DNA of 32,000 nt from Formosa sp. Hel1_33_131 (GCF_001735745.1 NZ_CP017260.1:2100001-2132000); one strand, 5' to 3'; shown: positions 1 through 30,994, counted from the first letter of the stretch. Made by a program: numbers and translations. Notes: a model not told the origin generated them from the letters alone.

Positions 1-1523
1 TTCCTTTTACGTCTATTGCAGACAGTTTAGTGTCGGTTAAGAAATCGGAAGTTGCAAGCTATGTCAAAGCAAATCCAAGCAAATACAAGGTTGAAGCTTC
101 AAGAGATTTAGTCTATGTTCAGTTTAAAGAAGTAGCTTCTTTAGAAGATGAGCAGCAAATCCAAGCGGATTTAACAGCCCTTATTGCTGATAAAGTAGAA
201 TTTAATGAAGCTGCCAAAGCCAACGAAACAGTGGTAGGCTTTCAAAATACAACAGATGTAAAAGCCTTTGTAAATGCCAATTCATCAGTTAAATATAACG
301 ATGCATATGTGTTTGCATCTAGCTTTCCAACGACTGTTGCAGATCAAATCACAGGGTTGAAATCAAATGAAGTTTTTGGACCTTATAAAGATGGAGCAGC
401 GTACAAGTTGTCAAAACAAGTGGCTAAAAAAATGATGTCAGATTCTACGAAAGTTCGTCACATCCTGATTCCATTTGTTGGGACGGTTCGTGCAGATGCC
501 TCAGTTACCAAAACAGATGCACAAGCAAAAACGACTGCCGATAGTATTTATAAAGTGATTCGTTCTAAACGTTCTAAATTCAAAAATTTACTGTCTTTAT
601 CATCTGATAAAGTGAGCAACGAAAAAGAAGGCGTTATTGAATTTGCTTATACAGACGCATTTGCAGAAGAATTTAAAGCCTATGCTTTTGAGAACCCTAA
701 AGGAAGTTTAGGCGTTGTAAAAACAGACTTTGGATATCATATTATTGAAATCTTAGATCAAGGAAAAAAACAAGAAGCATTTAAAATCGCAACGATCGTA
801 CAAGAGATTGAGCCATCAATTAAAACAATAGATGGCGTCTTTACAGATAAATCTAAATTTGAAATCGCGGTTGCCAATGCGGATTTCAATGAAGTTGCAA
901 AAGAAAATAACTATACAACATCCCCAGTAAGCAGCATTAAAGAATTGGACGAAACAATTCCAGGTCTTGGTGTTCAGAGAGCTATTGTAAGATGGTCTTT
1001 TGAAGAGGGTGTTGAAGTAGGAGACTTTAAAAGTTTCAATACATCAGGAGGTGGTTTTGTAGTTGCTAAGGTAACAGCTGTCAATGAAGCCGGATTAATG
1101 AGTGTTGAAAAAGCATCCATTACAGCACTTCCAGAAATCAGAAAAGAAAAGAAAGCGGAACTTATCAAAGACCGTATTACTGCAACCACTTTAGAAGCGA
1201 TTGCTTCTGACGAAGGACAGACGGTTAAAACAGCCCTGGCTGTAAACATGAAAAATCCAACGCTTTCAGGAGCAGGAAGAGAGCCTAAAGTCATCGGAAC
1301 GGCTTTTGGTTTAGCAGAAGGAGCCACCTCAAAATTAATCGTTGGTGCCAACGGCGTCTATGCAATTCAATTGACAAAGTTAACACCTGCTGAGCCGTTG
1401 CCAAATTATCAAGCATCTGCAAACCGTGTAGGTCAAGCCAAGTCAAGTGCTGTCAATACACAACTTTACAATGCACTGAAGGAAGCATCTGATATCGAAG
1501 ATAACAGAGCGACGTTTTACTAA
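1..1523 (+). CDS. Peptidyl-prolyl cis-trans isomerase / periplasmic chaperone of the PpiD-SurA type, 5'-truncated by the window edge
   Basis: The frame is open from base 3, with no stop upstream of the GTG at 30 used by the ORF track, so the N-terminus lies outside the window. It has a parvulin-type rotamase segment (KVRHILIPF ... GVVKTDFGYHIIEILDQ) followed by a long chaperone-like C-terminal region. It ends at TAA 1521-1523 and is followed by a hairpin terminator. Confidence 0.8.
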   Translation, partial: PFTSIADSLVSVKKSEVASYVKANPSKYKVEASRDLVYVQFKEVASLEDEQQIQADLTALIADKVEFNEAAKANETVVGFQNTTDVKAFVNANSSVKYNDAYVFASSFPTTVADQITGLKSNEVFGPYKDGAAYKLSKQVAKKMMSDSTKVRHILIPFVGTVRADASVTKTDAQAKTTADSIYKVIRSKRSKFKNLLSLSSDKVSNEKEGVIEFAYTDAFAEEFKAYAFENPKGSLGVVKTDFGYHIIEILDQGKKQEAFKIATIVQEIEPSIKTIDGVFTDKSKFEIAVANADFNEVAKENNYTTSPVSSIKELDETIPGLGVQRAIVRWSFEEGVEVGDFKSFNTSGGGFVVAKVTAVNEAGLMSVEKASITALPEIRKEKKAELIKDRITATTLEAIASDEGQTVKTALAVNMKNPTLSGAGREPKVIGTAFGLAEGATSKLIVGANGVYAIQLTKLTPAEPLPNYQASANRVGQAKSSAVNTQLYNALKEASDIEDNRATFY

Positions 1524-1550
1524 GTAGCACATTAAAATACTAGATATAAG

Positions 1551-1578
1551 AGGACTCAGAAATGGGTCCTTTTTTTTA
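1551..1578 (+). terminator. Rho-independent terminator of the PPIase gene
   Basis: Stem AGGACTC / GGGTCCT (7 bp including one G-U) with a 6-nt loop, followed by a T8 run. It starts 28 nt after the stop codon. Confidence 0.75.
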
Positions 1579-1647
1579 TGCTTTAAAATCTAGTAGAGAG
1601 TCTAGCCACATAGGTAATTTTTAAGCTGTCTAAAAAGTAGAAAATCT

Positions 1648-1725
1648 GTCATTCTGGATTTATTTCAGAATCTCAATTTTTTGAAATTTATTTTGTTTTA
1701 GAATCTGAAATAAATTCAGATTGAC
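1648..1725. repeat. Imperfect inverted repeat (two ~28-bp arms, ~21-bp spacer) of REP/MITE-like appearance
   Basis: GTCATTCTGGATTTATTTCAGAATCTCAA (1648-1676) pairs with the reverse complement of TTAGAATCTGAAATAAATTCAGATTGAC (1698-1725) at about 25 of 29 positions. Each arm also contains its own TTCTG...CAGAA mini-palindrome. Confidence 0.7.
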
Positions 1726-2125
1726 AAAGCAACCCCCTTTCCTATAGTCTTAGTTTCGATAGTTAGAAATATTTATTTCTTGGCGAATAGTAATTGAGAA
1801 TACAGAAAAAGCTTAGTTTTTATAAAACCATTTTAGATTCATCTATTAAAATTAGACCCTATTTTTTTGTTATCTCAAAAAATCGTGTAAATTTGATAAC
1901 ATTGGACCCCAAATCTAAATCTTCAATACGCAATTTAACCGAAGTTTTAGATCTAATTTTATTGAAATACGTTTTATAAACTACAGAGGTTTATAGTTGT
2001 CTGAGCAAAAATATTTTGCAAATAAAATAAGACACTGATATGTAAAAGAAATAAAGGCACGTTCCTTGAGTCTATCGAAAGGAGTGCGGATATTTACAAG
2101 TTACAAAACATTAAAACCAAATTTT

Positions 2126-2713
2126 ATGAAAAAAATTATTACAGGAATCCTACTTTTTACTGCTTTAATTTCACAAGCCCAAGAACTGATTTATGGAATA
2201 ACATTAGGTGGAAATATTAATGAAATATACTCTAATAGTGCTTTGAATAGCACAATACGTAATGAAGCAGGAACAAAGAAATTCAAACTTTATTTAGGCG
2301 GATTTGCTGATTATGGATTTACTGAAAATATTGGAGCAAAAGCACTAATAGCTTTTAACCAAAAAACTTTAGCTGTTGGAGAAGTTGTAGATTTTGGATT
2401 TTTAGATATTAGCACAAGCTTCAAATACAGTTTTGGAGATAATTACAGTGATGGATTTTATCTTCTTTTTGGACCAAGGTTCTCATTTTTACTAAATGCC
2501 GAATTTGACGGTGAAGATGTTAAGGATAATTTTGAAAACAGTAATATTGGATTACAACTTGGAGCTGGAACTTCAATTTACGAATTTTTAGAATTGGAAT
2601 TACGACTTGATTATGGATTGACAGCTTTATATGATGTTCTAGGAAATGACAGAAAAATATTTTGCGGAATTTTAGCTCTGAATTTGAATTTAGAAAAACT
2701 GTTGAATAAATAA
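2126..2713 (+). CDS. Outer-membrane beta-barrel (porin-family / OmpW-like) protein
   Basis: The ATG at 2126 gives a signal peptide, MKKIITGILLFTALISQAQ. The rest shows alternating aromatic/Gly-rich beta-strand patterning (YLGGFADYGF, FGPRFSFLLNA, LGLQLGAGTSIYEF, LELRLDYGL). The upstream 20 codons of the track ORF (2066) look like a non-coding leader. Confidence 0.7.
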   Translation: MKKIITGILLFTALISQAQELIYGITLGGNINEIYSNSALNSTIRNEAGTKKFKLYLGGFADYGFTENIGAKALIAFNQKTLAVGEVVDFGFLDISTSFKYSFGDNYSDGFYLLFGPRFSFLLNAEFDGEDVKDNFENSNIGLQLGAGTSIYEFLELELRLDYGLTALYDVLGNDRKIFCGILALNLNLEKLLNK

Positions 2714-2714
2714 C

Positions 2715-2880
2715 GTTTTGTAACCCCGCTTGCGCCACGCTTTTGCTCATGCCCAGTAAGCGAAACAAAACGAGCAAAGAGAAATAAATGAGTAGAACAT
2801 ATACTAATGAATTTGTTAACGGCATCACGCCAACAGCGTGACGCCAGCTTAGGCTAACCGCCACAAACCATATACAAAAC
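2715..2880. repeat. Island repeat copy A (full-length, ~166 bp), immediately 3' of the beta-barrel gene
   Basis: Starts 2 nt after the stop at 2713. Its termini are inverted (GTTTTGTA 2715-2722 / TACAAAAC 2873-2880). The core 2751-2824 is 74/74 identical to 3455-3528. Positions 2760-2878 match 4759-4877 with 5 substitutions. There is an internal hairpin GGCATCACGC-caaca-GCGTGACGCC (2821-2845). Confidence 0.9.
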
Positions 2881-2882
2881 TT

Positions 2883-3389
2883 GTGTGTAATGCAAAAAAC
2901 GAACAGAAAGTGAAAATAATAATTGGAGTTTTAATAGTTATAATCGGAATTTTAGCGATATTTAAAAAGCGCAATTTCGGAAAATTAAAAACCTATAAAT
3001 GGGAAACTGAAAAAGAAAAATTTGAGAAAGATTTCATACAAATATTATCGAAAAACCCGAATTTGGAACATTTGATTATTGAATTTGACTCTTATTATAT
3101 CCAATATAAAGGTTTTGTAAATAGTAAGGAATTTTATTCAGAAATTGTGAGTAATGAATTTCTGAATGAAACTAAAAAATACTCCGAAAATCAAATTGAG
3201 GAAATTTTAAATCTTGAGTTTTCAAAACCGAACGAAAAAGATAATGACGGAAATGTTTCGCCTAATTATACAAAATGGTATAACTTGACAACAATAAATG
3301 AAATTGAATTTATTCATAAAGAATTAATCAGAATTTTAAAATCTATTTTTGGTTTGGAAAATGGAAATAAATTTAAAGTTAGATATTAA
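2883..3389 (+). CDS. Hypothetical membrane-anchored protein (one N-terminal TM helix plus a ~130-aa Lys/Glu/Asn-rich soluble domain)
   Basis: A 168-codon ORF with no in-frame ATG near the 5' end, so the start must be GTG 2883 or GTG 2910. It has a hydrophobic stretch KIIIGVLIVIIGILAIF. I recognise no family motif. It is very AT-rich. Confidence 0.5.
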   Translation: MCNAKNEQKVKIIIGVLIVIIGILAIFKKRNFGKLKTYKWETEKEKFEKDFIQILSKNPNLEHLIIEFDSYYIQYKGFVNSKEFYSEIVSNEFLNETKKYSENQIEEILNLEFSKPNEKDNDGNVSPNYTKWYNLTTINEIEFIHKELIRILKSIFGLENGNKFKVRY

Positions 3390-3425
3390 AAACACTAAAC
3401 AGAACAAAGAACTGAGCTACAAAAA

Positions 3426-3528
3426 AACCCCCTCGAGCCACGCTTTAGCGTGGTGCCCAGTAAGCGAAACAAAACGAGCAAAGAGAAATAAATGAGTAGA
3501 ACATATACTAATGAATTTGTTAACGGCA
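3426..3528. repeat. Island repeat copy B (left arm plus core; right arm replaced)
   Basis: AACCCC..GCCACGCTTT..TGCCCAGTAAGCG is homologous to the left arm of copy A. The core 3455-3528 is identical to A. There is a perfect hairpin CCACGC-ttta-GCGTGG (3438-3453). The sequence diverges from A/C after ...GTTAACGGCA. Confidence 0.9.
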
Positions 3529-3556
3529 CAAGCGAGACGCCTTATTTCGGACGTTA

Positions 3557-3629
3557 TAGCTCATTTAGATAAACTATAAAGCTCAAGTGTTAATTAAAAT
3601 TGAGCTAAAAACACTATCTTTATGAGCTA
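3557..3629. promoter_or_regulatory. Nested dyad-symmetric TGAGCT array upstream of the fic-like gene (candidate operator or 5'-leader structure)
   Basis: Outer arms TAGCTCAT (3557-3564) / ATGAGCTA (3622-3629) extend to 13/15 complementary positions over 3557-3571 vs 3615-3629. Inner arms are AGCTCAA (3580-3586) / TTGAGCT (3600-3606). Both pairs share the same centre (~3593), and the heptamers start at 3557, 3579, 3601 and 3623, a 22-bp phasing. The array ends 13 nt before the ATG at 3642. Confidence 0.4.
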
Positions 3630-3641
3630 AATAAGTAAATC

Positions 3642-4682
3642 ATGATTACATCAAGAGAGACAGAAATAATTGCAACTATAAAATCAAGAGTAGAATGTTC
3701 ATCAAAAGAGGTGTTTGATAGTATCTCTGTGGAATTGAGTTATGCTACTCTAAAAAGGGCTTTATCAAAATTAGTTTCTGAAAATTACATTATAACCAAA
3801 GGAAAAGGTAAAGGAACTAAATATCTAATTTCACCGGTATATGAGCTGATTCAACCTGTTGATGTTGAAAAATATTACAAAAAAGAGATTGACCAACGTG
3901 AAATAAAACAAAATTTCAATTTTGAAGTTATAAATCAAGTACTAAAAAGACATAGTGTATTCACTAAAAATGAACTGGAAAAACTATCATTACTTCATAA
4001 CGATTATAAATATAATATTGCGCAACTTTCAAACATTGAGTACAAAAATGAGCTAGAAAGATTGGCGATAGACTTAAGCTGGAAATCTTCTCAAATTGAA
4101 GGCAATACTTATTCTCTTTTAGAAACAGAAAGATTGTTAAAGGAAAAAGAAACTGCATCGGGCAAAACAAGAGAAGAGGCAACAATGCTTTTAAATCATA
4201 AGGATGCTTTGGATTTCATTACAGATAATCCAGATTATTTACTTCCTCTATCTGTTTCAAAAATTGAAGATATACACAGTATATTAATAAAAGAACTTGC
4301 CGTAGAACGAAATCTCAGAAAAAGACGGGTAGGTATTTCTGGAACTAACTATCGACCGCTAGACAATGAATTTCAAATATTAGAAGCTTTAAGGAATGCA
4401 TGTGATGTGATAAACATAAAAGAAAATGTATTTGAAAAAGCATTAATTTCATTGGTGCTGATTTCGTACATCCAGCCATTTATGGACGGAAATAAAAGAA
4501 CAGCAAGAATCGTAAGTAATGCAATCCTGATGAATGAAAGTTATTGTCCTTTGTCGTTCAGGACTGTTGACTCGATTGATTATAAAAAAGCAATGTTGAT
4601 ATTTTATGAACAGAATAATATTTCAAGTTTTAAAGAGATATTTATCAATCAATTTGAATTTGCAGTGAATACTTATTTTTAG
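3642..4682 (+). CDS. Fic/Doc-family protein with N-terminal winged-helix DNA-binding domain and a degenerate active-site motif (QPFMDGNKRTAR)
   Basis: The N-terminal ~65 aa resemble a wHTH (SSKEVFDSISVELSYATLKRALSKLVSENYIITKGKGKGTKY). A class-II-type inhibitory motif [ST]xxxE[GN] is present as SSQIEGN. The Fic core position reads IQPFMDGNKRTARIVSNAIL instead of HxFx[DE]GNGRxxR. Confidence 0.8.
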   Translation: MITSRETEIIATIKSRVECSSKEVFDSISVELSYATLKRALSKLVSENYIITKGKGKGTKYLISPVYELIQPVDVEKYYKKEIDQREIKQNFNFEVINQVLKRHSVFTKNELEKLSLLHNDYKYNIAQLSNIEYKNELERLAIDLSWKSSQIEGNTYSLLETERLLKEKETASGKTREEATMLLNHKDALDFITDNPDYLLPLSVSKIEDIHSILIKELAVERNLRKRRVGISGTNYRPLDNEFQILEALRNACDVINIKENVFEKALISLVLISYIQPFMDGNKRTARIVSNAILMNESYCPLSFRTVDSIDYKKAMLIFYEQNNISSFKEIFINQFEFAVNTYF

Positions 4683-4712
4683 AATGATAAAAAACGAGCT
4701 TTAACAAAGTGT

Positions 4713-4889
4713 CATTTGTACTGCGACTCGCTGTTGCAACACCGCCAATTCCCACTATGCGAAACAAAACGAGTAAAGAGAAATAAATGAGTAGAACATA
4801 TACTAATGAATTTGTTAACGGTATCATGCCAACAGCGTGACCCCAGCTTAGGCTAACCGCAACAAACCATATACAAACACGTTGGCAAC
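4713..4889. repeat. Island repeat copy C (divergent left arm, core, full right arm)
   Basis: Positions 4759-4877 match copy A 2760-2878 with 5 substitutions. The left arm keeps CATTTGTA at the position equivalent to A's GTTTTGTA. The right edge runs into GTTGGCAAC (4881-4889). Confidence 0.85.
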
Positions 4890-4938
4890 TATAAAAACCA
4901 AGGCTTAAATTGAAGATTAATTTGCTAAATTAACTTTT

Positions 4939-4958
4939 TTGGTGCATATTAGCACCAA
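4939..4958. promoter_or_regulatory. Perfect palindrome upstream of parD (candidate ParD/ParDE autoregulatory operator)
   Basis: TTGGTGC-atatta-GCACCAA has 7-bp perfect arms and ends 11 nt before the parD ATG (4970). RHH antitoxins classically bind palindromic operators overlapping their own promoter. Confidence 0.5.
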
Positions 4959-4969
4959 AACAAAACAGT

Positions 4970-5203
4970 ATGGCAAGGCAAAGTATTTCTTTCACTGAAC
5001 CAAATGACGAGTGGTTAAAAAGTCAAGTGGACAAAAAAGAATATTCTACTAAAAGTGAATTGGTGAACGATTTAATTAGGCAAGCAAGAAAACAGCAAAG
5101 GAAAATTGATTGGATAAGTGCTAAATTGGAGAAAGCTGAAAATAGCGGATTTACGAATTTGAGTAAAGAACAAATATTAGCGGAATCGAAATCCGTGATT
5201 TAA
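4970..5203 (+). CDS. parD: Type II antitoxin, ParD family (ribbon-helix-helix)
   Basis: A 77-aa protein. MARQSISFTEPNDEWLKSQVDKKEYSTKSELVNDLIRQARKQ is the typical ParD/CopG-like N-terminus. Its stop overlaps the start of the toxin gene (TAATG at 5201-5205). Confidence 0.8.
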   Translation: MARQSISFTEPNDEWLKSQVDKKEYSTKSELVNDLIRQARKQQRKIDWISAKLEKAENSGFTNLSKEQILAESKSVI

Positions 5204-5493
5204 TGGCAAATTATAAACTAAGTAATTTAGCGAAAGAAGACTTAATAAGAATTCACCGATATGGAGTTGACAAATTTGGAATGACTCAAGCTGATAAATA
5301 TTTTGATTCATTCTTTGAATATTTTGATAGTATATCAAAAAATCCATTTTCATTTGAATCAGTCGAGTACATAAAGACTGATTATAGACGGTGTGTTTGT
5401 GGTTCTGATAGTATTTATTACAAAATAGGTGATAATAATAGTGTTGAAATTATGTCAATAATTGGAAAACAAGATTTAAAGAATATTTTATAA
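5203..5493 (+). CDS. parE: Type II toxin, RelE/ParE family
   Basis: A 96-aa protein. YKLSNLAKEDLIRIHRYGVDKFGMTQADKYFDSFFEYFDSISKNPF ... SIYYKI..NSVEIMSIIGKQDL matches the ParE fold pattern. It is translationally coupled to parD. Confidence 0.8.
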   Translation: MANYKLSNLAKEDLIRIHRYGVDKFGMTQADKYFDSFFEYFDSISKNPFSFESVEYIKTDYRRCVCGSDSIYYKIGDNNSVEIMSIIGKQDLKNIL

Positions 5494-5503
5494 CGCGGAA
5501 AAA

Positions 5504-5672
5504 TTACAGTTGCCAATTCCGTATAAACTTTATTGCTGGCTTTTTGCCTATTAGCGAAAGTCCTCTAAATTAAAGCGTGGCAGGTCGGATTTGCTACCTT
5601 GCCTGCGGCAGACAGGTTTCGGTTGTATTTTGCGTCATTAGATGCTTAAAAAACAAAACATATACAACAACG
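5504..5672. repeat. Island repeat copy D (highly divergent/mosaic member)
   Basis: Starts 11 nt after the parE stop. It shares GTTGCCAATTCC with the left arm of C (GTTGC..CCAATTCC), TTAGCGAAA with the core start, AAAGCGTGGC (the inverted form of GCCACGCTTT in A/B), and the right-end ACAAAACATATACAA (A: ACAAACCATATACAA). It also contains the GC-rich palindrome TGCCTGCGGCAGACAGG (5600-5616). Confidence 0.6.
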
Positions 5673-5703
5673 ATATAAAAGAACTCAAAAACGCCCTCTT
5701 TTT

Positions 5704-6612
5704 TTACAAAATCATTTCTGAATACCCAACAACCGTCGTATAACCTTTGGCCTTAAAATACTCTATAGCAGCTGCGTTTCCGGTTGCTAGGAAGAAGTCA
5801 CCACCCCAAGCGCCCAAACTCTTAATAGCGCCCTCATAATCCGAAAACAAGGCCTCTTTTAAAGGCGGTTGTTGGATGAGCGTAGAGATATAACCTTCAT
5901 GCTGTTCAATCAGCGATTCAAAGGTTTTTAAGTCTGTACAATTTAAGAGGTCTAAAGTCAAGCCATTCAGTGCCGAAAAATCAAGGGATTGATTTGCAGT
6001 CAGTGTTTTATAGGCTTGAATCCCATCTCTACTGTTTTGTTTTTGATTCCGATGCACAAAAAATAAAGCATCTGAAAATGGAGGTAAAAACTCCACTGGT
6101 TTGACCGTTGGTTTTCCTTTTTCTAACTGATATAAAACACCTGTTTCCTGTTGTGCGCAAGCAATGTCAAATCCACTGCCACCAAAAGTCAGTGCCAGTA
6201 ATTCAAAAGCATCTACTTTTGCCCATTTTGCTAAATTATTAATTAAAGTAGAGGAAGACCCCAATCCCCAATTTTCAGGAAATTCTAAGGTAGAAGTTAA
6301 TGCATAGCCTTTATGCGTTTCAAAAAGCAAAGGGTTCAACTGTTGTAAAGCGTCCAAAACTTGCACGAGACGAACGGCAATGTCTGAAGTATCTGTTGTG
6401 GATATTTTTAAAGCAGCATCAATCGTGAATTTTGCTTCAAACCAAACAGTGCCTTCATTGGAAATGCTTTTCCAAAGGATTGTATTTTCAGAAGTCGATT
6501 CAACTGATAAGGATTGCCCAAATTTAGTAGGCAATGCCAGAGCCAAAGCACCATCTAAGACCGCATATTCTGCACTGATCAATAATTTCCCATGACTGTA
6601 AAACGTTTGCAT
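5704..6612 (-). CDS. GHMP-family kinase of the mevalonate pathway (GYDIA-type; mevalonate/phosphomevalonate kinase-like)
   Basis: N-terminal HGKLLISAEYAVLDGALALALP, GHMP motif II NWGLGSSSTLINNLAKWA, and a GSGFDIACAQ block. Its start overlaps the stop of the upstream HMG-CoA reductase gene (TAATG). Confidence 0.75.
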   Translation of the reverse strand: MQTFYSHGKLLISAEYAVLDGALALALPTKFGQSLSVESTSENTILWKSISNEGTVWFEAKFTIDAALKISTTDTSDIAVRLVQVLDALQQLNPLLFETHKGYALTSTLEFPENWGLGSSSTLINNLAKWAKVDAFELLALTFGGSGFDIACAQQETGVLYQLEKGKPTVKPVEFLPPFSDALFFVHRNQKQNSRDGIQAYKTLTANQSLDFSALNGLTLDLLNCTDLKTFESLIEQHEGYISTLIQQPPLKEALFSDYEGAIKSLGAWGGDFFLATGNAAAIEYFKAKGYTTVVGYSEMIL

Positions 6613-7895
6613 TAGGCTCTTAAATTTTCAATTGCTTCCACCACCGCACTGTGGGTCACCGTATGGGTTTTGAAATGTTCGATTAAGTGTATCTTTTCAG
6701 TAGCATTCGCTTCAAATTGATTCAATATATTAAGCAAGTGCATTTTCATATGTCCTTGTTGAATGCCCGTCGTCGTGAGGGATTTTAAAGCCGCAAAATT
6801 TTGAGCCAATCCAGCCACGGCAACAATCTCCATTAATTCTTTAGCGGAAGGTTTTCCTAATAATTCCAAGGCTGTTTTTACCAGTGGATGCAAACCTGTC
6901 AGCCCACCCACAGTACCGAGCGCCAGCGGCAATTCAATCCAAAATTTAAACGCCCCATCTTCTATAGAAGCATGCGTTAAACTCGAATAACTTCCCGAGC
7001 GTGCCGCGTATGCATGTACGCCCGCTTCCACTGCTCTAAAGTCATTTCCTGTGGCTAAGACCACCGAATCTACGCCGTTCATAATTCCTTTGTTATGCGT
7101 CACTGCACGGTAAGGTTCTATTTCGGCTATGCGTACGGCTTGCAGAAAAGTATCTGCAAATTCTTGACCTGTATAGGTGTTTGTTGCGAGCGCATCTACC
7201 TTGCAACTCACTTCAGCACGTACCAAGCAATCCGGCACATAATTGGATAAAATACTCATCACCACCTGAATGTCTTTAGAACAACTTTTGAAGGTCGTTG
7301 CAATTTGCTCCAAACAAGAATTGATGAAATTTGCTCCCATGGCATCTTTCGTTTCAAAGGTGGTATGCAACTGGTAGTAGCCTGAAAGTTTTTCTGTTTT
7401 GTCCATCAATGCGATGTCTAAAATACCACCGCCACGCGCCTCCATGTTTTTGGTGATGGCTTTCGTTTCTTCGAAAAGTTGTGGTTTTATCGTTTTAAAA
7501 AGAGCTTCCAATTCAGAAAATGCTCCATGAAACATAAAATGAACCTGACCTACTTTGGTAGTCGATAGCACTTCTGCTTTGAAGCCCCCGCGTTCCATCC
7601 AAAATTTTGCAGCATTACTTGCCGCCGCAACTACCGAACTTTCTTCGATCGTCATTGGAATGACGTACATTTTATCGTTAATCAAAAAATTTGGAGCCAC
7701 TCCAAAAGGCAGGTAGAAATTAGAAATTGTATTTTCAGTAAACTCGTCATGAAGCTTTTGGAGCACTTCATCCGTATTCCAATACCGTTCCAAATCGGCT
7801 TTCGCTTTTGGATTATTTTGAAAATGATTTGCGATCAACCAATCAATTTTTTCAGCTTTTGTAAACTTTGAAAATCCAGAAACGGAATTCTCCAT
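6612..7895 (-). CDS. Hydroxymethylglutaryl-CoA reductase (class II-like)
   Basis: Motifs TIEESSVVAAASNAAK, DAMGANFINS, ALGTVGGLTGLHP and GHMKMHLLN. Preferred start is ATG 7895 (MENSVSGFSKFTKAEKIDW). The track's TTG at 7952 adds 19 implausible residues. Confidence 0.85.
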   Translation of the reverse strand: MENSVSGFSKFTKAEKIDWLIANHFQNNPKAKADLERYWNTDEVLQKLHDEFTENTISNFYLPFGVAPNFLINDKMYVIPMTIEESSVVAAASNAAKFWMERGGFKAEVLSTTKVGQVHFMFHGAFSELEALFKTIKPQLFEETKAITKNMEARGGGILDIALMDKTEKLSGYYQLHTTFETKDAMGANFINSCLEQIATTFKSCSKDIQVVMSILSNYVPDCLVRAEVSCKVDALATNTYTGQEFADTFLQAVRIAEIEPYRAVTHNKGIMNGVDSVVLATGNDFRAVEAGVHAYAARSGSYSSLTHASIEDGAFKFWIELPLALGTVGGLTGLHPLVKTALELLGKPSAKELMEIVAVAGLAQNFAALKSLTTTGIQQGHMKMHLLNILNQFEANATEKIHLIEHFKTHTVTHSAVVEAIENLRA

Positions 7896-8045
7896 GTGTG
7901 TCTGTTTTAGAAACACAAAGATACTATTCTTCATATTATTATGGAGCTGCAATTATTCTAATTGCGTATTTATCTGTTATTATCTCAGGTTTTCTGCTAA
8001 TTTTTTAGTAAACTTGACCTAATATTATCAAAAATTCTCTAAAAA

Positions 8046-10235
8046 ATGAAATCTCCTTTTATCTACCTACTCAGTTGTCTGTTTATTTTGACAGCGACCG
8101 CTCAAAAGAAAACCATTTCATTGGATCAAATTTGGGATGGCACTTTCAGAACGCAGGGCATGACCGCTTTGCATTCGATGAACAATGGACAGCAATATTC
8201 AGTTTTGAATTTTGACAGATCGGCACGATCGACTTCCATTGATTTATACGATTACAAAACTTTATCCAAAGTAAAAACCATTGCAAGCTCTCAATCGATG
8301 GATGCAATTCCGTATTTCACAAATTACACGTTTAGTGACGATGAGCGTCAAGTGATTTTAGAAACCGAAACAGAACCTATATTTCGGTATTCTGCTTTCG
8401 GAATTTTTTATGTATATAATATCAATTCTGAAAGTCTCGAAAAAATTTCTGAAGATAAAATTCAAGAACCTGCTTTTTCTCCAGATGGCACCAAAGTCGC
8501 TTATGGACGAAAGAACAATATATTTATAAAAGACCTTATCTCTGGAACCACAAAACAAATCACCTTTGATGGAGAGAAAAACAAAATCATTAATGGAATT
8601 ACGGATTGGGTTTACGAGGAAGAATTTGCTTTCGTAAGGGCTTTTGAGTGGAATGCTTCCAGCAATAAAATTGCGTTTATTCGTTTTGACGAAACCGAAG
8701 TTCCTGAATTTTCAATGGATATTTATGGGACTGACTTGTATCAAACTCAAGAAGTATTCAAGTACCCGAAAGCAGGGGAGAAAAATGCTGAAGTATCACT
8801 TCATTTCTACGATTTAAGCGCGGATCAAATTTCAACGGTTGCATTGTCTAAGGACTATAACGATTTTTATATTCCTCGAATTAAATGGACAAAAGATGCA
8901 AATATTCTGTCCGCTCAATATATGAACAGGCATCAAAATACTTTGGACCTTTGGATGATCAATCCAACAACGAACAAAGCCGATTTAGTGCTTTCTGAAA
9001 AAGACGACGCCTATGTGGATGTGACGGATAATTTGACGTTTCTAAAAGACTACAGCTTTATCTGGACCAGCGAAAAAGATGGGTACAATCATATTTATCA
9101 CTACACCAAAGAAGGGAAGTTAAAAAATCAAGTCACAAAAGGCAACTGGGAAGTCACTGCCTATTATGGGTACAATGAATCAGCTAAAACTATTTATTAT
9201 CAATCGGTAGAAAATGGTTCTATCAATCGAGATATCTATTCAATCCGATTGAATGGTAAAAACAAAAAACGACTCTCTTTAGAGGAAGGAACAAATGATG
9301 CTTCTTTTAGTGCAGATTTCACCTACTTTATCAAAACCTATTCCAATGCTACCACGCCTCAAAAATTTACATTAAACGATTCTAAATCCGGCAGACTGGT
9401 TAAAAATATCAAAGACAATTCGGCACTTTTAGAAACACTAGGGACTTATAAGTTTTCTAACAAAGAATTCAGTACCATTAACGTCAATGGAAACGATTTG
9501 AATATGTGGATGCTCAAACCCGCCGATTTTGATCCGTCAAAATCCTACCCACTTTTAATGTTTCAATACTCAGGGCCGGGGTCGCAACAAGTAGCTAACA
9601 GATGGTACAGTTCACGCGATTATTGGCATCAATATTTAGCCCAACAAGGTTATATTGTGGCTTGTGTAGATGGACGAGGAACAGGCTTCAAAGGAGCCGA
9701 TTTCAAAAAAATGACCTATTTAAATCTAGTCAAATACGAAACTGAAGATCAAATTCAAGCCGCAAAACAAATTTCAGAGTTATCCTATATAGACGAAAGT
9801 CGCATTGGAATTTGGGGGTGGAGTTACGGCGGTCATATGAGTACCAATTGTTTACTGAAAGGGAACGATGTTTTTAAAATGGCCATTGCGGTTGCTCCGG
9901 TGACAAGCTGGCGTTTTTACGACACTATTTATACTGAACGTTTTATGCGAACGCCTCAAGAAAATCCAAATGGATACGATGAAAACTCTCCATTTAATTA
10001 TCCAGAATTGTTAAAAGGCGATTACCTTTTAGTGCATGGCTCGGGTGATGACAACGTGCATGTACAACACACGATGCGCATGGTAGAAGCTTTGATTCAA
10101 GCGGACAAACAATTTGATTGGGCCATTTATCCCGATAAAAACCACGGCATCTATGGCGGAAATACCACCATGCATTTATACACTAAGATGACCAATTTTT
10201 TACATGAAAAATTAGGCGATAAACGAATGAACTAA
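8046..10235 (+). CDS. Dipeptidyl-peptidase IV (S9B serine peptidase), secreted
   Basis: Signal peptide MKSPFIYLLSCLFILTATAQ, a DPP-IV N-terminal beta-propeller region, the catalytic nucleophile motif GIWGWSYGGHMS, and later GSGDDNVH and a conserved His (KNHGI). Confidence 0.9.
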   Translation: MKSPFIYLLSCLFILTATAQKKTISLDQIWDGTFRTQGMTALHSMNNGQQYSVLNFDRSARSTSIDLYDYKTLSKVKTIASSQSMDAIPYFTNYTFSDDERQVILETETEPIFRYSAFGIFYVYNINSESLEKISEDKIQEPAFSPDGTKVAYGRKNNIFIKDLISGTTKQITFDGEKNKIINGITDWVYEEEFAFVRAFEWNASSNKIAFIRFDETEVPEFSMDIYGTDLYQTQEVFKYPKAGEKNAEVSLHFYDLSADQISTVALSKDYNDFYIPRIKWTKDANILSAQYMNRHQNTLDLWMINPTTNKADLVLSEKDDAYVDVTDNLTFLKDYSFIWTSEKDGYNHIYHYTKEGKLKNQVTKGNWEVTAYYGYNESAKTIYYQSVENGSINRDIYSIRLNGKNKKRLSLEEGTNDASFSADFTYFIKTYSNATTPQKFTLNDSKSGRLVKNIKDNSALLETLGTYKFSNKEFSTINVNGNDLNMWMLKPADFDPSKSYPLLMFQYSGPGSQQVANRWYSSRDYWHQYLAQQGYIVACVDGRGTGFKGADFKKMTYLNLVKYETEDQIQAAKQISELSYIDESRIGIWGWSYGGHMSTNCLLKGNDVFKMAIAVAPVTSWRFYDTIYTERFMRTPQENPNGYDENSPFNYPELLKGDYLLVHGSGDDNVHVQHTMRMVEALIQADKQFDWAIYPDKNHGIYGGNTTMHLYTKMTNFLHEKLGDKRMN

Positions 10236-10274: not shown

Positions 10275-11813
10275 ATGTCAACTACAACTACTGCAAATCA
10301 AAAAGAACTCTGGGGACACCCCGTTGGATTATATGTACTATTTTTCACGGAGATGTGGGAACGGTTTTCTTACTATGGAATGCGCGCTATCTTGGTTATT
10401 TATATGATTGCTGAAGCCTCTCACATAGATGGCCCTGGATTGAGTTGGTCAAAACTTGAAGCGTATCAACTGTATGGTTGGTATGTTATGTTGGTATATG
10501 TAATATCAATTCCTGGAGGTATTTTAGCCGATAAAGTCTTGGGTCAGAGAAAAACGGTTATGCTTGGCGCTGTCATTTTATGTTTAGGTCATGGAACCTT
10601 AGCTATTGAGGCCGAATGGGCATTCTTTACAGGTTTGAGTTTGATTATTTTAGGAGTCGGTTGTTTAAAACCTAATATCTCCACAATGGTTGGAGGTCTT
10701 TATAAAAAAGGGGACATAAGACGTGATAAAGGGTTTAGTATTTTCTATATCGGAATTAATTTAGGTTCTTTATTAGCAACGTCCGTTATCGGACTTGTTG
10801 TAGCCAAATGGGGATGGCATGCTGGTTTTGGTTTAGCCGGAATTGCAATGTTATTAGGTTTACTGGTGTATGTTTGGGGACAAAAATACATTAGTCATGT
10901 AGGAAATAAACCTACAGTTGAAGAAATGAAAAATGATGTTTCTTTAGTTAAAATATTCTCAAATATTTTTAAATCACCTGCTCAATTAGCAGTTCTAGTC
11001 ATTTTATTAGCACTGTCTCTATACTCAGGATTTACTTTTGAAGGCGTTGACCATTGGGGTTATGGAGCTTTGTTTATCTTCCTTTCATTTGTTGTAGGAT
11101 TATTAATGATGATTTTTAAAAGTTTAGAAACACAAATATTAAAAGACCGTTTTTTAGTCTTATTACTTTCTTTTTTATTAGTCATTGTTTTCTGGGGCGC
11201 TTTTGAGCAAGCAGGTGGATTAATGAGTGTTTACACAGAAACAAAAACAGATAGAATGCTACTTGGCTACTTAATACCAACGCCAATGTTTCAAGGTTTA
11301 AATGCTGGATTTATCATATTACTGGCCGTTTGGGTCGCAAACATTTGGGCAAAACGAAAACTTAAAAACAAAGAAGCCTCCTCTTTATTTAAAATGGCAA
11401 CGGGAACAATAATTATGGGCTTAGGGTTTGTATTTATGATTTTAGCCGTAAGAGAATACGATGCGAACGGAAGTTCTGGAATGCAATGGTTGGTTCTAGC
11501 TTATTTATTCCATACCATTGGAGAGTTGTGTTCTTCTCCTGTATCCTTATCATTCGTAACCAAACTAGCACCCGTTAAATATGCATCTTTAATGATGGGA
11601 CTGTATTTTGCAGCCACTGGACTTGGAGGTAAAGTTGCAGGTATTTTAGGTGAGAAATCAGAACACTTTGGAGAGTACACTATCTTTACTGGAATTGTAA
11701 TCTTTACAGTAGCCTTTGGATTATTAGTAATTGCATTACTGAAACCATTAAAACGTTTAACGCATGGTGCCGAAGACAACGAAAGACTGTTAGACGCTTC
11801 AATCGCAGAATAA
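10275..11813 (+). CDS. POT/PTR2-family proton-dependent di/tripeptide transporter (512 aa)
   Basis: N-terminal signature GHPVGLYVLFFTEMWERFSYYGMRAIL, multiple TM segments, and a second PTR2 block (FSIFYIGINLGS). Confidence 0.9.
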   Translation: MSTTTTANQKELWGHPVGLYVLFFTEMWERFSYYGMRAILVIYMIAEASHIDGPGLSWSKLEAYQLYGWYVMLVYVISIPGGILADKVLGQRKTVMLGAVILCLGHGTLAIEAEWAFFTGLSLIILGVGCLKPNISTMVGGLYKKGDIRRDKGFSIFYIGINLGSLLATSVIGLVVAKWGWHAGFGLAGIAMLLGLLVYVWGQKYISHVGNKPTVEEMKNDVSLVKIFSNIFKSPAQLAVLVILLALSLYSGFTFEGVDHWGYGALFIFLSFVVGLLMMIFKSLETQILKDRFLVLLLSFLLVIVFWGAFEQAGGLMSVYTETKTDRMLLGYLIPTPMFQGLNAGFIILLAVWVANIWAKRKLKNKEASSLFKMATGTIIMGLGFVFMILAVREYDANGSSGMQWLVLAYLFHTIGELCSSPVSLSFVTKLAPVKYASLMMGLYFAATGLGGKVAGILGEKSEHFGEYTIFTGIVIFTVAFGLLVIALLKPLKRLTHGAEDNERLLDASIAE

Positions 11814-12442: not shown

Positions 12443-12482
12443 ATTTTATTCAAAGTGTCTAATAGTGAATCGAATTTAGTAA

Positions 12483-12517
12483 ATTAACCAATTAACCAAT
12501 TAACCAATTAACCAATT
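12483..12517. repeat. Octanucleotide microsatellite (ATTAACCA) x 4.4 abutting the start codon of the second POT gene
   Basis: Perfect units at 12483-12490, 12491-12498, 12499-12506 and 12507-12514, then ATT (12515-12517) directly followed by ATG 12518. Confidence 0.95.
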
Positions 12518-14266
12518 ATGAGTATTGATATTAATGACATGTTCAAAGACAAAGTCTTGGGGCATCCAGCGGGACTTTTTGTATTATTTTTTACCGAGAT
12601 GTGGGAACGTTTTTCCTACTACGGAATGCGAGCCTTGCTCGTTATGTTTTTCACCGCATCACTCCTTGATGGTGGCTGGGGCTGGCCTCGTGAGCATGCC
12701 TATGCAATTTTTGGTACTTACACCTCACTGGTCTATTTATCGACCCTATTAGGAGGCTATTTTGCAGATAAAAAAATTGGCTATCGCTACGCCGTTGTCA
12801 TCGGTGCATTACTCATGACATTGGGCCACGGCGCCATGGCAATTGAAACACCGTTTTTCATCTATTTAGGGCTGACCTTATTAGTCTTTGGAAGTGGGTT
12901 TTTTAAACCAAACATGACCTCAATCATCTCTGAAATGTACAAAGGAAAAGACGAGAAAAAAGATGGAGCTTACACCATTTTTTATATGGGTGTCAATGCA
13001 GGTGCTTTTTTAGGAATTCTGTTGTGTGGATATCTAGGTGAACAAGTAGGCTGGCGTTGGGGCTTTGGCTTGGCAGGAATTTTCATGTTGTTTGGACTCC
13101 TTCAATTTTGGTTTGCTCAAAACATTTTTGGCGATATCGGAACAAAACCTGTAAAGGTGGATACTGCAGCGATAGAGCTCAGTGCAGACGAGCCGAAGCT
13201 CAACCCGTTTACACAGCTTCAATTAGTATTGATAGCAGTCGCAGGACTTTTGGGGATCTCGTGGATTTTTAACGATCCCATCTCTAAAATATCAGAAGGC
13301 GCTTATAATTTATTTGATTTTAGCATGTTTGGAATGGAAGGTTCTAACCTCGCAATTCTATCCGCTTTAGGGCTGTTTGTGTTGCTGTTAGTGATCCGAA
13401 TTCCTAAGTACGACAGAATCACACGCGACCGTATGTTGGCCGTGATGTTTTTCGCCTTTATCACGATTTTCTTTTGGGCTATTTTTGAACAAGCACCAAG
13501 TTCCTTAACCATTTTTGCACGGGATTATACCCAGCGCATCCTAGAAGGAAATTCAGCCTTTATTTTTAAAATTGTCAATACCCTTATGACCGTCATTCCT
13601 TTGGGGATTATCACTGGGGTTTTATGGTTACTATTCAAAAAAACATTTTCAAAATATGCACTCTCAAATATCTTTTTAGCGGTTAGTTTTATCATCATTT
13701 GGGCCATCGCCCTTTGGATGCTATCCGTTGAATTCGGAAAAGAAATTGCAGAAGTACCCGCCTCTTGGTTTGGGGTTTTAAACTCCTTGTTCATCATTGC
13801 GTTTGCACCCTTATTTTCGAGGTGGTGGGAAAGTAAATACAATCCAAATGCCAACATGAAATATGCGATAGGAATGGTTTTATTAGGAATCGGAATGGCC
13901 TGTGTTGCCATTGGCGCATCGTCTATTGAGCCCGGAGCAAAAACAGCTTCTGTCAGTATGATTTGGTTGATTATGGTGTACTTCTTTCATACCATGGGCG
14001 AATTGTGTATTTCACCAGTTGCCTTGTCTTACGTCAGTAAATTAGTTCCAGGCCGCATGATTGCCATGATGTTTGGAATCTGGTATTTAGCTGTTGCAAT
14101 TGGAATGAAGTTAGCCGGAGTGTTTGGAGAAGCGTCTGAAGGCATTGCCCAATCTGAAGGTTTGAGCTATTTCTTCTGGATTTTAACAGCAGTCGCTGTT
14201 GGACTCGGAGTACTGTCTGCGCTACTATATCCTGTAATTAAGAAATTAATGCATGGTGTTCGTTAA
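12518..14266 (+). CDS. POT/PTR2-family proton-dependent di/tripeptide transporter (582 aa, long form)
   Basis: GHPAGLFVLFFTEMWERFSYYGMRALL signature and FTIFYMGVNAGAF block. It has about 14 hydrophobic segments. It is a paralogue of 10275-11813. Confidence 0.9.
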   Translation: MSIDINDMFKDKVLGHPAGLFVLFFTEMWERFSYYGMRALLVMFFTASLLDGGWGWPREHAYAIFGTYTSLVYLSTLLGGYFADKKIGYRYAVVIGALLMTLGHGAMAIETPFFIYLGLTLLVFGSGFFKPNMTSIISEMYKGKDEKKDGAYTIFYMGVNAGAFLGILLCGYLGEQVGWRWGFGLAGIFMLFGLLQFWFAQNIFGDIGTKPVKVDTAAIELSADEPKLNPFTQLQLVLIAVAGLLGISWIFNDPISKISEGAYNLFDFSMFGMEGSNLAILSALGLFVLLLVIRIPKYDRITRDRMLAVMFFAFITIFFWAIFEQAPSSLTIFARDYTQRILEGNSAFIFKIVNTLMTVIPLGIITGVLWLLFKKTFSKYALSNIFLAVSFIIIWAIALWMLSVEFGKEIAEVPASWFGVLNSLFIIAFAPLFSRWWESKYNPNANMKYAIGMVLLGIGMACVAIGASSIEPGAKTASVSMIWLIMVYFFHTMGELCISPVALSYVSKLVPGRMIAMMFGIWYLAVAIGMKLAGVFGEASEGIAQSEGLSYFFWILTAVAVGLGVLSALLYPVIKKLMHGVR

Positions 14267-30333: not shown

Positions 30334-30340
30334 TTTCATT

Positions 30341-30994
30341 CCCTATATAAACCCTTTCTCTCTAGCCGAAACTATGAGTTGTCTATCATCTAGTTTTTTC
30401 ACATTGAACATACTTTTAAGGTTACGTTTTCTTTTTTCTATGCTTGCGATTGAAAGTGGTAATATATTTGGAAGGTCTTTCATTCGTGTGCCAATCGATA
30501 GCTCATACAATATTTTACGATCATAATTGTCCAGAATAAAATCATTTACAACTTGATCGCGAAGTAACTTTAACACTGTTTTGCTATAGTAAGGAGGGTC
30601 GTTGATTACAATGCGAATGGTTTCTAAAAGCTCAAGAGGTGTAATGTCATTTTTTATTAAAAGCCCTCCCTATATAAACCCTTTCTCTCTAGCCGAAACT
30701 ATGAGTTGTCTATCATCTAGTTTTTTCACATTGAACATACTTTTAAGGTTACGTTTTCTTTTTTCTATGCTTGCGATTGAAAGTGGTAATATATTTGGAA
30801 GGTCTTTCATTCGTGTGCCAATCGATAGCTCATACAATATTTTACGATCATAATTGTCCAGAATAAAATCATTTACAACTTGATCGCGAAGTAACTTTAA
30901 CACTGTTTTGCTATAGTAAGGAGGGTCGTTGATTACAATGCGAATGGTTTCTAAAAGCTCAAGAGGTGTAATGTCATTTTTTATTAAAAGCCCT
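30341..30994. repeat. Perfect tandem direct duplication, 2 x 327 bp
   Basis: By eye, 30341-30667 is identical base for base to 30668-30994. The unit covers the last 108 codons, the stop codon and 2 downstream nt of the response-regulator gene. The junction reads ...AAAAGCCCT|CCCTATATAA... Confidence 0.95.
30343..30669 (-). pseudogene. Duplicated 3' fragment of the response-regulator gene (receiver alpha5/linker plus LuxR-type HTH), without its own ATG
   Basis: It encodes GGLLIKNDITPLELLETIRIVINDPPYYSKTVLKLLRDQ...SAREKGFI*, identical to residues ~120-227 of the upstream gene. It is in frame immediately after that gene's TAG. The only possible independent start is GTG at 30576 (77 aa). Confidence 0.6.

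Follow-up and report, generated by a model that had tools for sequence, protein, structure and literature searches.

A strain-variable accessory-gene islet in Formosa sp. Hel1_33_131 punctuated by repeats of apparent REP-associated transposase origin

The 32,000-nucleotide stretch of Formosa sp. Hel1_33_131 DNA analysed here (GCF_001735745.1, NZ_CP017260.1:2100001-2132000; hereafter the window) carries at positions 1580-5700 an island of four accessory units, all on the plus strand and each with a member of one repeat family at its 3′ side. On the left lies a peptidyl-prolyl isomerase (PPIase) gene (30-1523) and on the right a mevalonate operon, in which the GYDIA GHMP kinase gene (5704-6612, minus strand) is found beside the 3-hydroxy-3-methylglutaryl-coenzyme A (HMG-CoA) reductase gene; both flanking genes face the island with their 3′ ends. 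The first cargo encodes an outer-membrane β-barrel protein (OMP; 2126-2713; Pfam OMP_b-brl_2, E = 1.4e-15), the second a 168-aa membrane-anchored protein of unassigned function for which a Pfam search gave no family (2883-3389), and the third a SoFic-like protein with a winged helix-turn-helix and a Fic domain (3642-4682; Pfam Fic, E = 5.7e-14; PADLOC SoFic, E = 6.8e-18). The fourth is the toxin-antitoxin (TA) pair ParD (4970-5203) and ParE (5203-5493), both recognized by Pfam, a unit flanked by the 13-nt inverted repeats TTGGCAACTATAA (4882-4894) and TTACAGTTGCCAA (5508-5520). In L021, a contig from a sister species, a 10-nt direct repeat, AAAATACGTT, additionally brackets the ParDE unit. The window proteins match AOR29057-AOR29064 exactly, and GC content is 0.24-0.34 in the island vs 0.35-0.47 in the flanks.

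A repeat search delimited three long copies, A (2749-2878), B (3453-3582; 71% over its full length) and C (4748-4877). A and C agree at 94% over 130 nt, and BLAST found A and B to share a core identical at 74 of 74 positions (2751-2824 and 3455-3528). With their arms the elements extend further, all on the plus strand, and are organised around a forward and an inverted hairpin, called here REP (repetitive extragenic palindromic) hairpins in accordance with their origin as set out below. Element A (2724-2885) contains a decayed forward REP (2724-2760), the core and an intact inverted REP (2821-2845) that folds as GGCATCACGC-caaca-GCGTGACGCC with a stem of 10-12 bp; its tail terminates in ..CATATACAAAACTTG. 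In B (3428-3555) it is the forward REP that is intact, with a CCCCC foot and the hairpin CCACGC-ttta-GCGTGG (3438-3453), the inverted one being cut off within its stem (GGCACAAGCGAGACGCC, 3525-3541), and the element ends with ..GGACGTT. Element C (4713-4889) displays a diverged left arm, the core (4759-4821), a decayed inverted REP (4820-4844) and the tail ..ACACGTTGGCAAC; its part starting at 4761 has 96% identity with L021, of a different species. The forward REP of A and both REPs of C are thus decayed and the inverted REP of B is truncated. The last element, D (5495-5677), is degenerate and matches the family in fragments only, its left part (5495-5578) moving with ParDE across species and its right part finishing with a tail-like ..AAAACATATACAACAACGATAT.

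On these points our results agree with the sequence-only reading from which this work started: the four same-strand units between the two housekeeping loci, the AT-richness of the island, the core shared by A and B, the near-identity of A and C, the fragmentary state of D and the hairpins named in A and B were all found again. Each unit is also followed by a repeat, as it had stated, the repeats starting at a C-run (2724 in A, 3428 in B) and not directly after the stop codon; at the right ends of repeats and cassettes an ACGTT motif recurs. The structured parts that it listed have to be completed by a 198-bp indel with a long hairpin, a mosaic leader and direct repeats bounding the island.

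Chance does not explain this family, given the identity levels and the recurrence of the repeats at the homologous locus in 13 independent metagenome contigs. Folded as single-stranded (ss) DNA, each repeat forms two separate local hairpins and leaves its ends unpaired. Since the MAFFT alignment was out of structural register, the stems of 21 hairpin copies were tabulated by script; the outer GCGC/GTGC pairs are kept and five different, fully complementary inner stems occupy one position between these conserved feet. Such compensatory changes mean that it is the structure that is conserved.

The origin of the repeats can be read from the arrays of the sister species. In contigs L021 and L041, the array beside the mevalonate operon consists of an OMP gene, a gene for a 180-aa protein, a repeat and ParDE. 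The 180-aa protein belongs to Pfam Y1_Tnp (PF01797, E = 1e-9) and to NCBIfam NF047646, REP-associated tyrosine transposase (RAYT), with 95.4 bits vs an equivalog cut-off of 80. Its HUH motif is SHVH and its tyrosine motif YIHNNP, the signature of subclass 2.6, whose members occur mostly in Bacteroidetes and have atypical secondary structures on either side (Quentin et al. 2018, PMC6006769). In L021 the gene is bracketed by perfect 31-nt inverted repeats, and inverted hairpins bracket it likewise in L041, L048, L049, L052 and L053. The upstream 31-nt copy is the left arm of the window repeats and their right-arm hairpin is its inversion. As for the core (2751-2824 in A), it corresponds to the RAYT 5′ untranslated region (UTR) and first five codons fused directly to the RAYT 3′ UTR; the core reads ATGAGTAGAACATAT where the gene has ATGAGTAGAAAATAT, and ACTAATGAATTTGTTAAC where the gene has ACTAACTTTAGTTTGTTTAA.

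A virtual RAYT locus from which the open reading frame (ORF) was deleted, built from L041, aligns end to end with the repeats (z = 13.3 for A, 11.5 for B and 7.4 for C). The general plan is thus a forward REP hairpin, the 5′ UTR with the first codons (ATGAGTAGAA.ATAT), the 3′ UTR (ACTAA..TTTGTTAAC) and an inverted REP hairpin, followed in some cases by a tail of about 35 nt. This end-to-end alignment identifies the repeats as ORF-less RAYT shells, relics of a REPtron and non-autonomous derivatives of a Y1/HUH transposase unit. We also read D as a probable degenerate shell, since L039 holds a clear REP hairpin and UTR at its position.

Three other assignments were dropped. A plus-strand mini-ORF, MSRTYTNEFVNG, considered as a leader peptide, is the remnant of the RAYT start, and a hydrophobic minus-strand mini-ORF, PLTNSLVYVLLIYFSLLVLFR, considered as a type I toxin, starts and ends differently in each copy and is antisense to the UTR remnants. 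The core contains a dyad, AACATAT-ACTAATGA-ATTTGTT, noticed by eye, which is a weak 7-8-7 arrangement without the CATAA..TTATG arms of a dif-like site, which would be of 28 nt (11-6-11) and bound each module; the stretch is the junction of the RAYT start and 3′ UTR, and a dif/Xer site as used by integrative mobile elements exploiting Xer (IMEX) was therefore not retained.

No RAYT ORF was found in the window by tblastn. Elsewhere in the genome, Formosa sp. Hel1_33_131 encodes a RAYT of its own (P0015, WP_069677491.1). Its annotated start reads MQFHNES..., against MSRKYKFHNES... in the family, so that its 5′ end may be altered in a manner involving the five codons that survive in the shells.

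To compare the locus among relatives, we collected contigs through the Fic and GHMP-kinase proteins, which gave 20 contigs from identical or very close strains; scans with the repeat core added one genome locus and 13 true metagenome loci. Over these roughly 30 related contigs the PPIase-mevalonate interval proves hypervariable, with at least 18 gene families at one site. The layouts include OMP-Fic-ParDE, the window’s own OMP-168-Fic-ParDE, lipocalin-Fic-259aa, DUF488+274aa-Fic-259aa, shell-HNH-138aa-ParDE, 140aa+DUF5677-ParDE, a series opened by 187aa+SieB, and one in which a second ParE-type TA pair and three further genes precede the 168-aa gene; others exist besides these. The position of the first cargo is elsewhere occupied by lipocalin-like lipoproteins, PDC-M19A/B, SieB and others, and ParDE, where present, is always the unit adjoining the mevalonate operon. 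The cargo all lies on one strand and is rich in TA and defence genes, the known or candidate defence genes being the SoFic-like Fic, PDC-M19A/B (PADLOC E-values 1e-124 and 1e-128), SieB and HNH, whose protein resembles type IV restriction enzymes. In L010 (8054-9763), and also in L001, the first cassette is made of PDC-M19A (DUF488, 293 aa) and PDC-M19B (274 aa), a candidate defence system.

All true repeat copies from the genome and metagenome scans are at this locus and 3′ of a cargo unit. Among GTDB representative genomes the core had one match, and a metagenome scan with a 22-mer gave 19 matches, 13 of them true and all at the PPIase-mevalonate locus; the remaining six were discarded as due to chance, falling at gene starts (MSRTYI..) of phage-like contigs and of one unrelated genome. 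Viral contigs scanned with the core gave 0 matches. Within the 32-kb window and the 10 kb on either side of related loci no further copy was found. The genome and metagenome scans used core 22-25-mers and not the hairpin by itself. One apparent additional partial repeat, in L020, turned out to be a scaffold gap of N’s.

The constant position of the shells 3′ of every unit and on the coding strand, together with the covariation of the hairpin, could suggest that they are chiefly RNA elements, which terminate or stabilise transcripts and insulate the cassettes, recombination being a by-product. A role of REPs in transcription termination and mRNA stabilisation is mentioned as a hypothesis in PMC3733652. 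We consider this unlikely as their main role: the hairpins are followed by no T-run and no terminator was detected at the shells by the scan, and it would account neither for the RAYT UTR and codon remnants nor for the presence of one shell type behind unrelated genes of different strains.

The comparison also indicates where exchanges have occurred. Some strains match the window at 99.7-99.9% apart from lacking the 168-aa gene; they carry a single chimeric shell composed of the left arm of A, the core and the right arm of B, which places the crossover within the identical 74-bp core. In strains with a backbone of about 94% identity, another gene stands in first position, the exchanged stretch running from the leader (1786-2125) to the left boundary of the repeat that follows, and the segment 4887-5677 (ParDE and D) is replaced by a 259-aa gene. 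The conserved leader is on the plus strand upstream of this first and most variable gene, and keeps 84-95% identity among strains with different first genes; a single attI-like junction in it was rejected, the leader being a mosaic with several breakpoints. Moreover, the repeat and ParDE unit (4761-5578) is 96% identical in L021, where the backbone is only 79% identical, and 96.7% identical in L039, on a backbone of about 84%, cross-species identity for ParDE being 96-98%. Unit identities of 96-97% on backbones of 79-84% indicate a recent exchange of this unit at the same site between species.

Two imperfect direct repeats of about 35 bp bound the island on the plus strand. The left copy, GATATAAGAGGACTCAGAAATGGGTCCTTTTTTTTA (1546-1580), is the intrinsic terminator of the PPIase gene according to the terminator scan, and the right copy, GATATAAAAGAACTCAAAAACGCCCTCTTTTTTTA (5672-5706), overlaps the stop codon of the GHMP kinase gene; both are terminator-like, their pairing being read directly from the sequence, and in other strains they are identical at 32 of 35 positions (L003 left vs L040 right). 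Contig L012 (reverse complement, 3560-10009) carries two tandem copies of the whole island (1786-5704), joined at a hybrid of the right and left bounding repeats; in the second one the 198-bp segment is missing and the leader differs slightly. This duplication may be real, may reflect a circular form or may be a strain chimera of a short-read scaffold.

One could imagine from these features that the whole island is one element integrated at the PPIase terminator by site-specific recombination, the direct repeats being attL and attR and the inner repeats incidental. The hybrid junction of L012 would be expected from a circular form or from unequal exchange, and the island is AT-rich. Yet no integrase is found in or near it and no empty site was found. 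In the sister species the array adjoins the mevalonate operon with a different left flank and without the bounding repeat, variation is mostly internal and proceeds shell by shell, and L012 is a short-read metagenome scaffold. A single integrated element is, to our opinion, quite improbable.

The sequence-only reading had pointed to another origin, a sedentary chromosomal integron or a cluster of attC sites lacking integron-integrases (CALIN); the repeats would then be attC sites served by an IntI encoded elsewhere. The resemblance in layout is real: same-strand single genes or TA pairs, a structured repeat of 130-170 bp 3′ of each unit, TA and Fic or defence cargo, strain-level turnover of cassettes and a first position that is the most variable. 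Near-core motifs also occur in isolation (GGCTAAC ... GTTAGCC in L003). However, a heuristic search for attC sites (RYYYAAC...GTTRRRY, 55-150 nt apart, complementarity of at least 6/7) gave 0 candidates on both strands of 1500-5799, vs 3.6 ± 2.6 in shuffled sequences, and the unpaired repeat ends and separate hairpins differ from an end-to-end attC stem. Tyrosine or serine recombinases were found neither in the 32-kb window (ORFs of at least 100 aa) nor in the 10 kb upstream in related contigs, so that an integrase is absent within ±10-26 kb. Cassette boundaries do not fall at G|TT of an R′ site at the repeat 3′ end: several right ends show ACG|TT without a partner R″ site, and the crossover of the 168-aa unit is located mid-repeat, in the 74-bp core. 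Finally, the island cassettes carry their own promoter and operator regions, unlike those of integrons, and the repeats are homologous to RAYT gene flanks. An integron is thus an extremely remote explanation.

The earlier reading had itself noted the lack of convincing core sites and of an integrase in the window, with which our motif scan and ORF search agree, and its fallback, a different cassette-capture system or one like miniature inverted-repeat transposable elements, comes close, the repeats being non-autonomous derivatives of a RAYT unit. The idea of a cassette-like array as such holds, since content between repeats differs among near-identical strains and is common to several species. 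Two findings that it had named as arguments against itself, identical island content in all relatives and scattered core copies, were not obtained; the interval is hypervariable and the true copies found are all 3′ of cargo at this locus.

Our preferred interpretation, which we hold as probable, is that the island is a strain-variable accessory-gene islet, largely devoted to anti-phage defence and TA functions, built on the remains of a REPtron, and that the shells provide portable homology. What the data establish is where the repeats come from, the covariation of their hairpins, the variability among strains and species, one crossover inside the identical core and a RAYT gene available in trans; the course of events that follows is our interpretation. 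RAYT action on its own flanks, presumably nicking at REP hairpins, would have generated the shells and multiplied them locally, a pattern also observed beside intact RAYTs of other Flavobacteriaceae, leaving them 3′ of every cargo unit. Because they share 75-170 bp at 90-100% identity, the shells could then serve as portable homology, cargo being gained, lost or replaced by recombination between them, in which the conserved leader and the flanks would also take part, both inside the population and from one species to another. We suppose that present-day exchange occurs mainly by RecA-type homologous recombination on imported DNA, with RAYT nicking perhaps still seeding some junctions. Neisserial minimal mobile elements offer a parallel: different cassettes occupy one site between conserved genes and are exchanged by homologous recombination on imported DNA, with intergenic repeat arrays. 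They involve other repeat families and organisms, whereas in the island the repeats separate every unit and are derived from a transposase gene.

Several observations weigh against this interpretation. Only one event, that of the 168-aa unit, has its crossover mapped inside shared homology. Unrelated cargo joins the identical nucleotide of the forward REP foot, at the C-run, in at least eight contexts, and similarly sharp junctions to unrelated DNA occur at the right ends ..ACGTT; joints of this type do not arise by homologous recombination alone. The decay of window hairpins makes current RAYT action on them doubtful. In addition, dispersed REP copies beyond the scanned window and related loci are possible, and some metagenome contigs may hold assembly errors (the scaffold gap of L020, the duplication of L012).

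RAYT loci of other Flavobacteriaceae are relevant here. RAYTs of 76-97% identity are widespread in this family, in varied genomic contexts. In Tenacibaculum piscium two ORF-less shells lie upstream of the RAYT gene and one downstream, and L049 (9870-10003) shows a tandem duplicate of REP, UTR and eight codons. In Cellulophaga lytica the RAYT gene is followed first by an Imm49 gene with two shells, then by three genes, an inverted REP, one further gene and finally a forward REP. Of three Cellulophaga genomes whose RAYTs are identical, one bears a two-gene insertion of 1.38 kb precisely at the hairpin of a shell, where the shorter alleles have a chimeric hairpin. Accessory arrays punctuated by shells thus seem to recur with RAYTs of subclass 2.6. 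Tandem ORF-less or 5′-truncated copies of REP, UTR and start are also found beside intact RAYTs in L053 (5750-6000 and 6580-6900) and L052 (7425-7740), as in L049 at the position given above, and in C. lytica a sequence of about 20 nt, GAATCAATATAAAAACAAAA, stands on both sides of two such copies.

These observations bring forward a more ambitious possibility, in which RAYT acts in trans, nicking and rejoining ssDNA at REP hairpins and so excising and inserting shell-bounded units; it would be a functional analogue of the integron in which RAYT takes the part of IntI and the REP shells that of attC. The sharp junctions at the forward REP foot speak in its favour, as do the Fic and HNH units, which begin inside the inverted REP stem, the Cellulophaga indel with its chimeric hairpin, the tandem shell duplications beside intact RAYTs and the presence of a RAYT gene in the Formosa genome. 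TnpAREP is moreover able to cleave and recombine REP/BIME (bacterial interspersed mosaic element) ssDNA in vitro with strand transfer, and models for the amplification of tandem units and for a ‘sequestering’ of the genes alongside were given by the authors of that work (PMC3333891), so that the idea of moving cassettes has a precedent. On the other side, no conserved target or cleavage motif is found beside the junctions, many window hairpins are decayed, and no circular junction or relocated cassette was seen. The order of cargo is kept, ParDE last and Fic before it, which fits replacement better than transposition, and homology explains the mapped 168-aa event equally well. We therefore regard an active system of this type as possible and clearly less probable than recombination between relic shells. 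With the same reserve, one may speculate that flavobacterial subclass 2.6 RAYTs and their shells constitute an unrecognised HUH-endonuclease cassette system, in which the domesticated transposase, working in trans on ssDNA hairpins, captures, amplifies and shuffles shell-bounded defence genes at dedicated chromosomal arrays. It would perhaps, as part of that conjecture, represent an integron-like function evolved from an IS200-type ancestor.

Among known systems, the closest kind to an islet on REPtron relics is the REPtron itself, a tnpAREP/RAYT gene with flanking REP/BIME hairpins (Ton-Hoang et al. 2012, PMC3333891), and within it the Bacteroidetes RAYT subclass 2.6, or Bertels group 5 (Quentin et al. 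2018, PMC6006769). The sister-species array carries a RAYT of this type (180 aa) with inverted flanking hairpins, the window repeats are homologous to RAYT flanks, and extra copies are clustered locally. Unlike a REPtron, the window array has shells only, the RAYT being elsewhere in the genome, and copies appear limited to one locus with strain-variable protein-coding cargo between them. The shells also resemble REPINs, the doublets of REPs that RAYTs mobilise (Bertels & Rainey 2011, PMC3116915), in having two inverted REP hairpins around a spacer and in being non-autonomous and derived from RAYT flanks. They differ from them by a spacer of about 95 nt, still recognisable as RAYT UTRs and start codons, and by their low copy number at a single locus with no sign of genome-wide replication. 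A literature search returned no description of such a strain-variable cassette array nor of a comparable role for RAYTs, and the use of RAYT relics as a cassette scaffold appears undescribed.

In this locus gene-stripped RAYT flanks separate every unit of an array of defence genes. The array is subject to turnover among the co-occurring strains of a flavobacterium abundant in spring blooms, and it also passes from one species to another. RAYT/REP biology would in this way be linked to the dynamics of defence islands. If shell recombination is only homologous, the locus would still be a clear case of relic mobile-element sequence scaffolding a hypervariable site; if the HUH cassette system were true, it would give RAYTs a host-level role. 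The forward and inverted hairpins with known junctions provide a concrete set of substrates for asking whether a RAYT can move genes, and the shell core is a marker for locating similar arrays in metagenomes.

Other features of the window are the following. Between the PPIase terminator and the leader lies the 198-bp indel (1588-1785), whose long hairpin has its arms at 1647-1676 and 1697-1726 and an RNA fold of -31 kcal/mol (z = -5.7). This segment is missing from strains of the L001, L003 and L004 type, and in L025 part of it is found again inside the array, accompanied by a second leader copy; it might represent an independent small module, mobile or regulatory. Searched over 1-8000 in E-value mode, Rfam gave no match on the repeats, only sub-threshold microRNA and small nucleolar RNA noise, all on the 1647-1726 hairpin. 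Outside the island, the window also encodes ComEC. It contains two paralogous PTR2/MFS peptide-transporter genes, whose 5′ regions (10306-10399 and 12552-12645) share 94 nt at 77% identity, and a AATTAACC microsatellite of 4.6 copies (12482-12518) lies upstream of the second. At 30340-30994 an exact tandem duplication (327-bp unit, 2.0 copies, 100% identity) has a GNAT acetyltransferase gene on one side and on the other a 227-aa minus-strand ORF, of which it overlaps the 3′ part.

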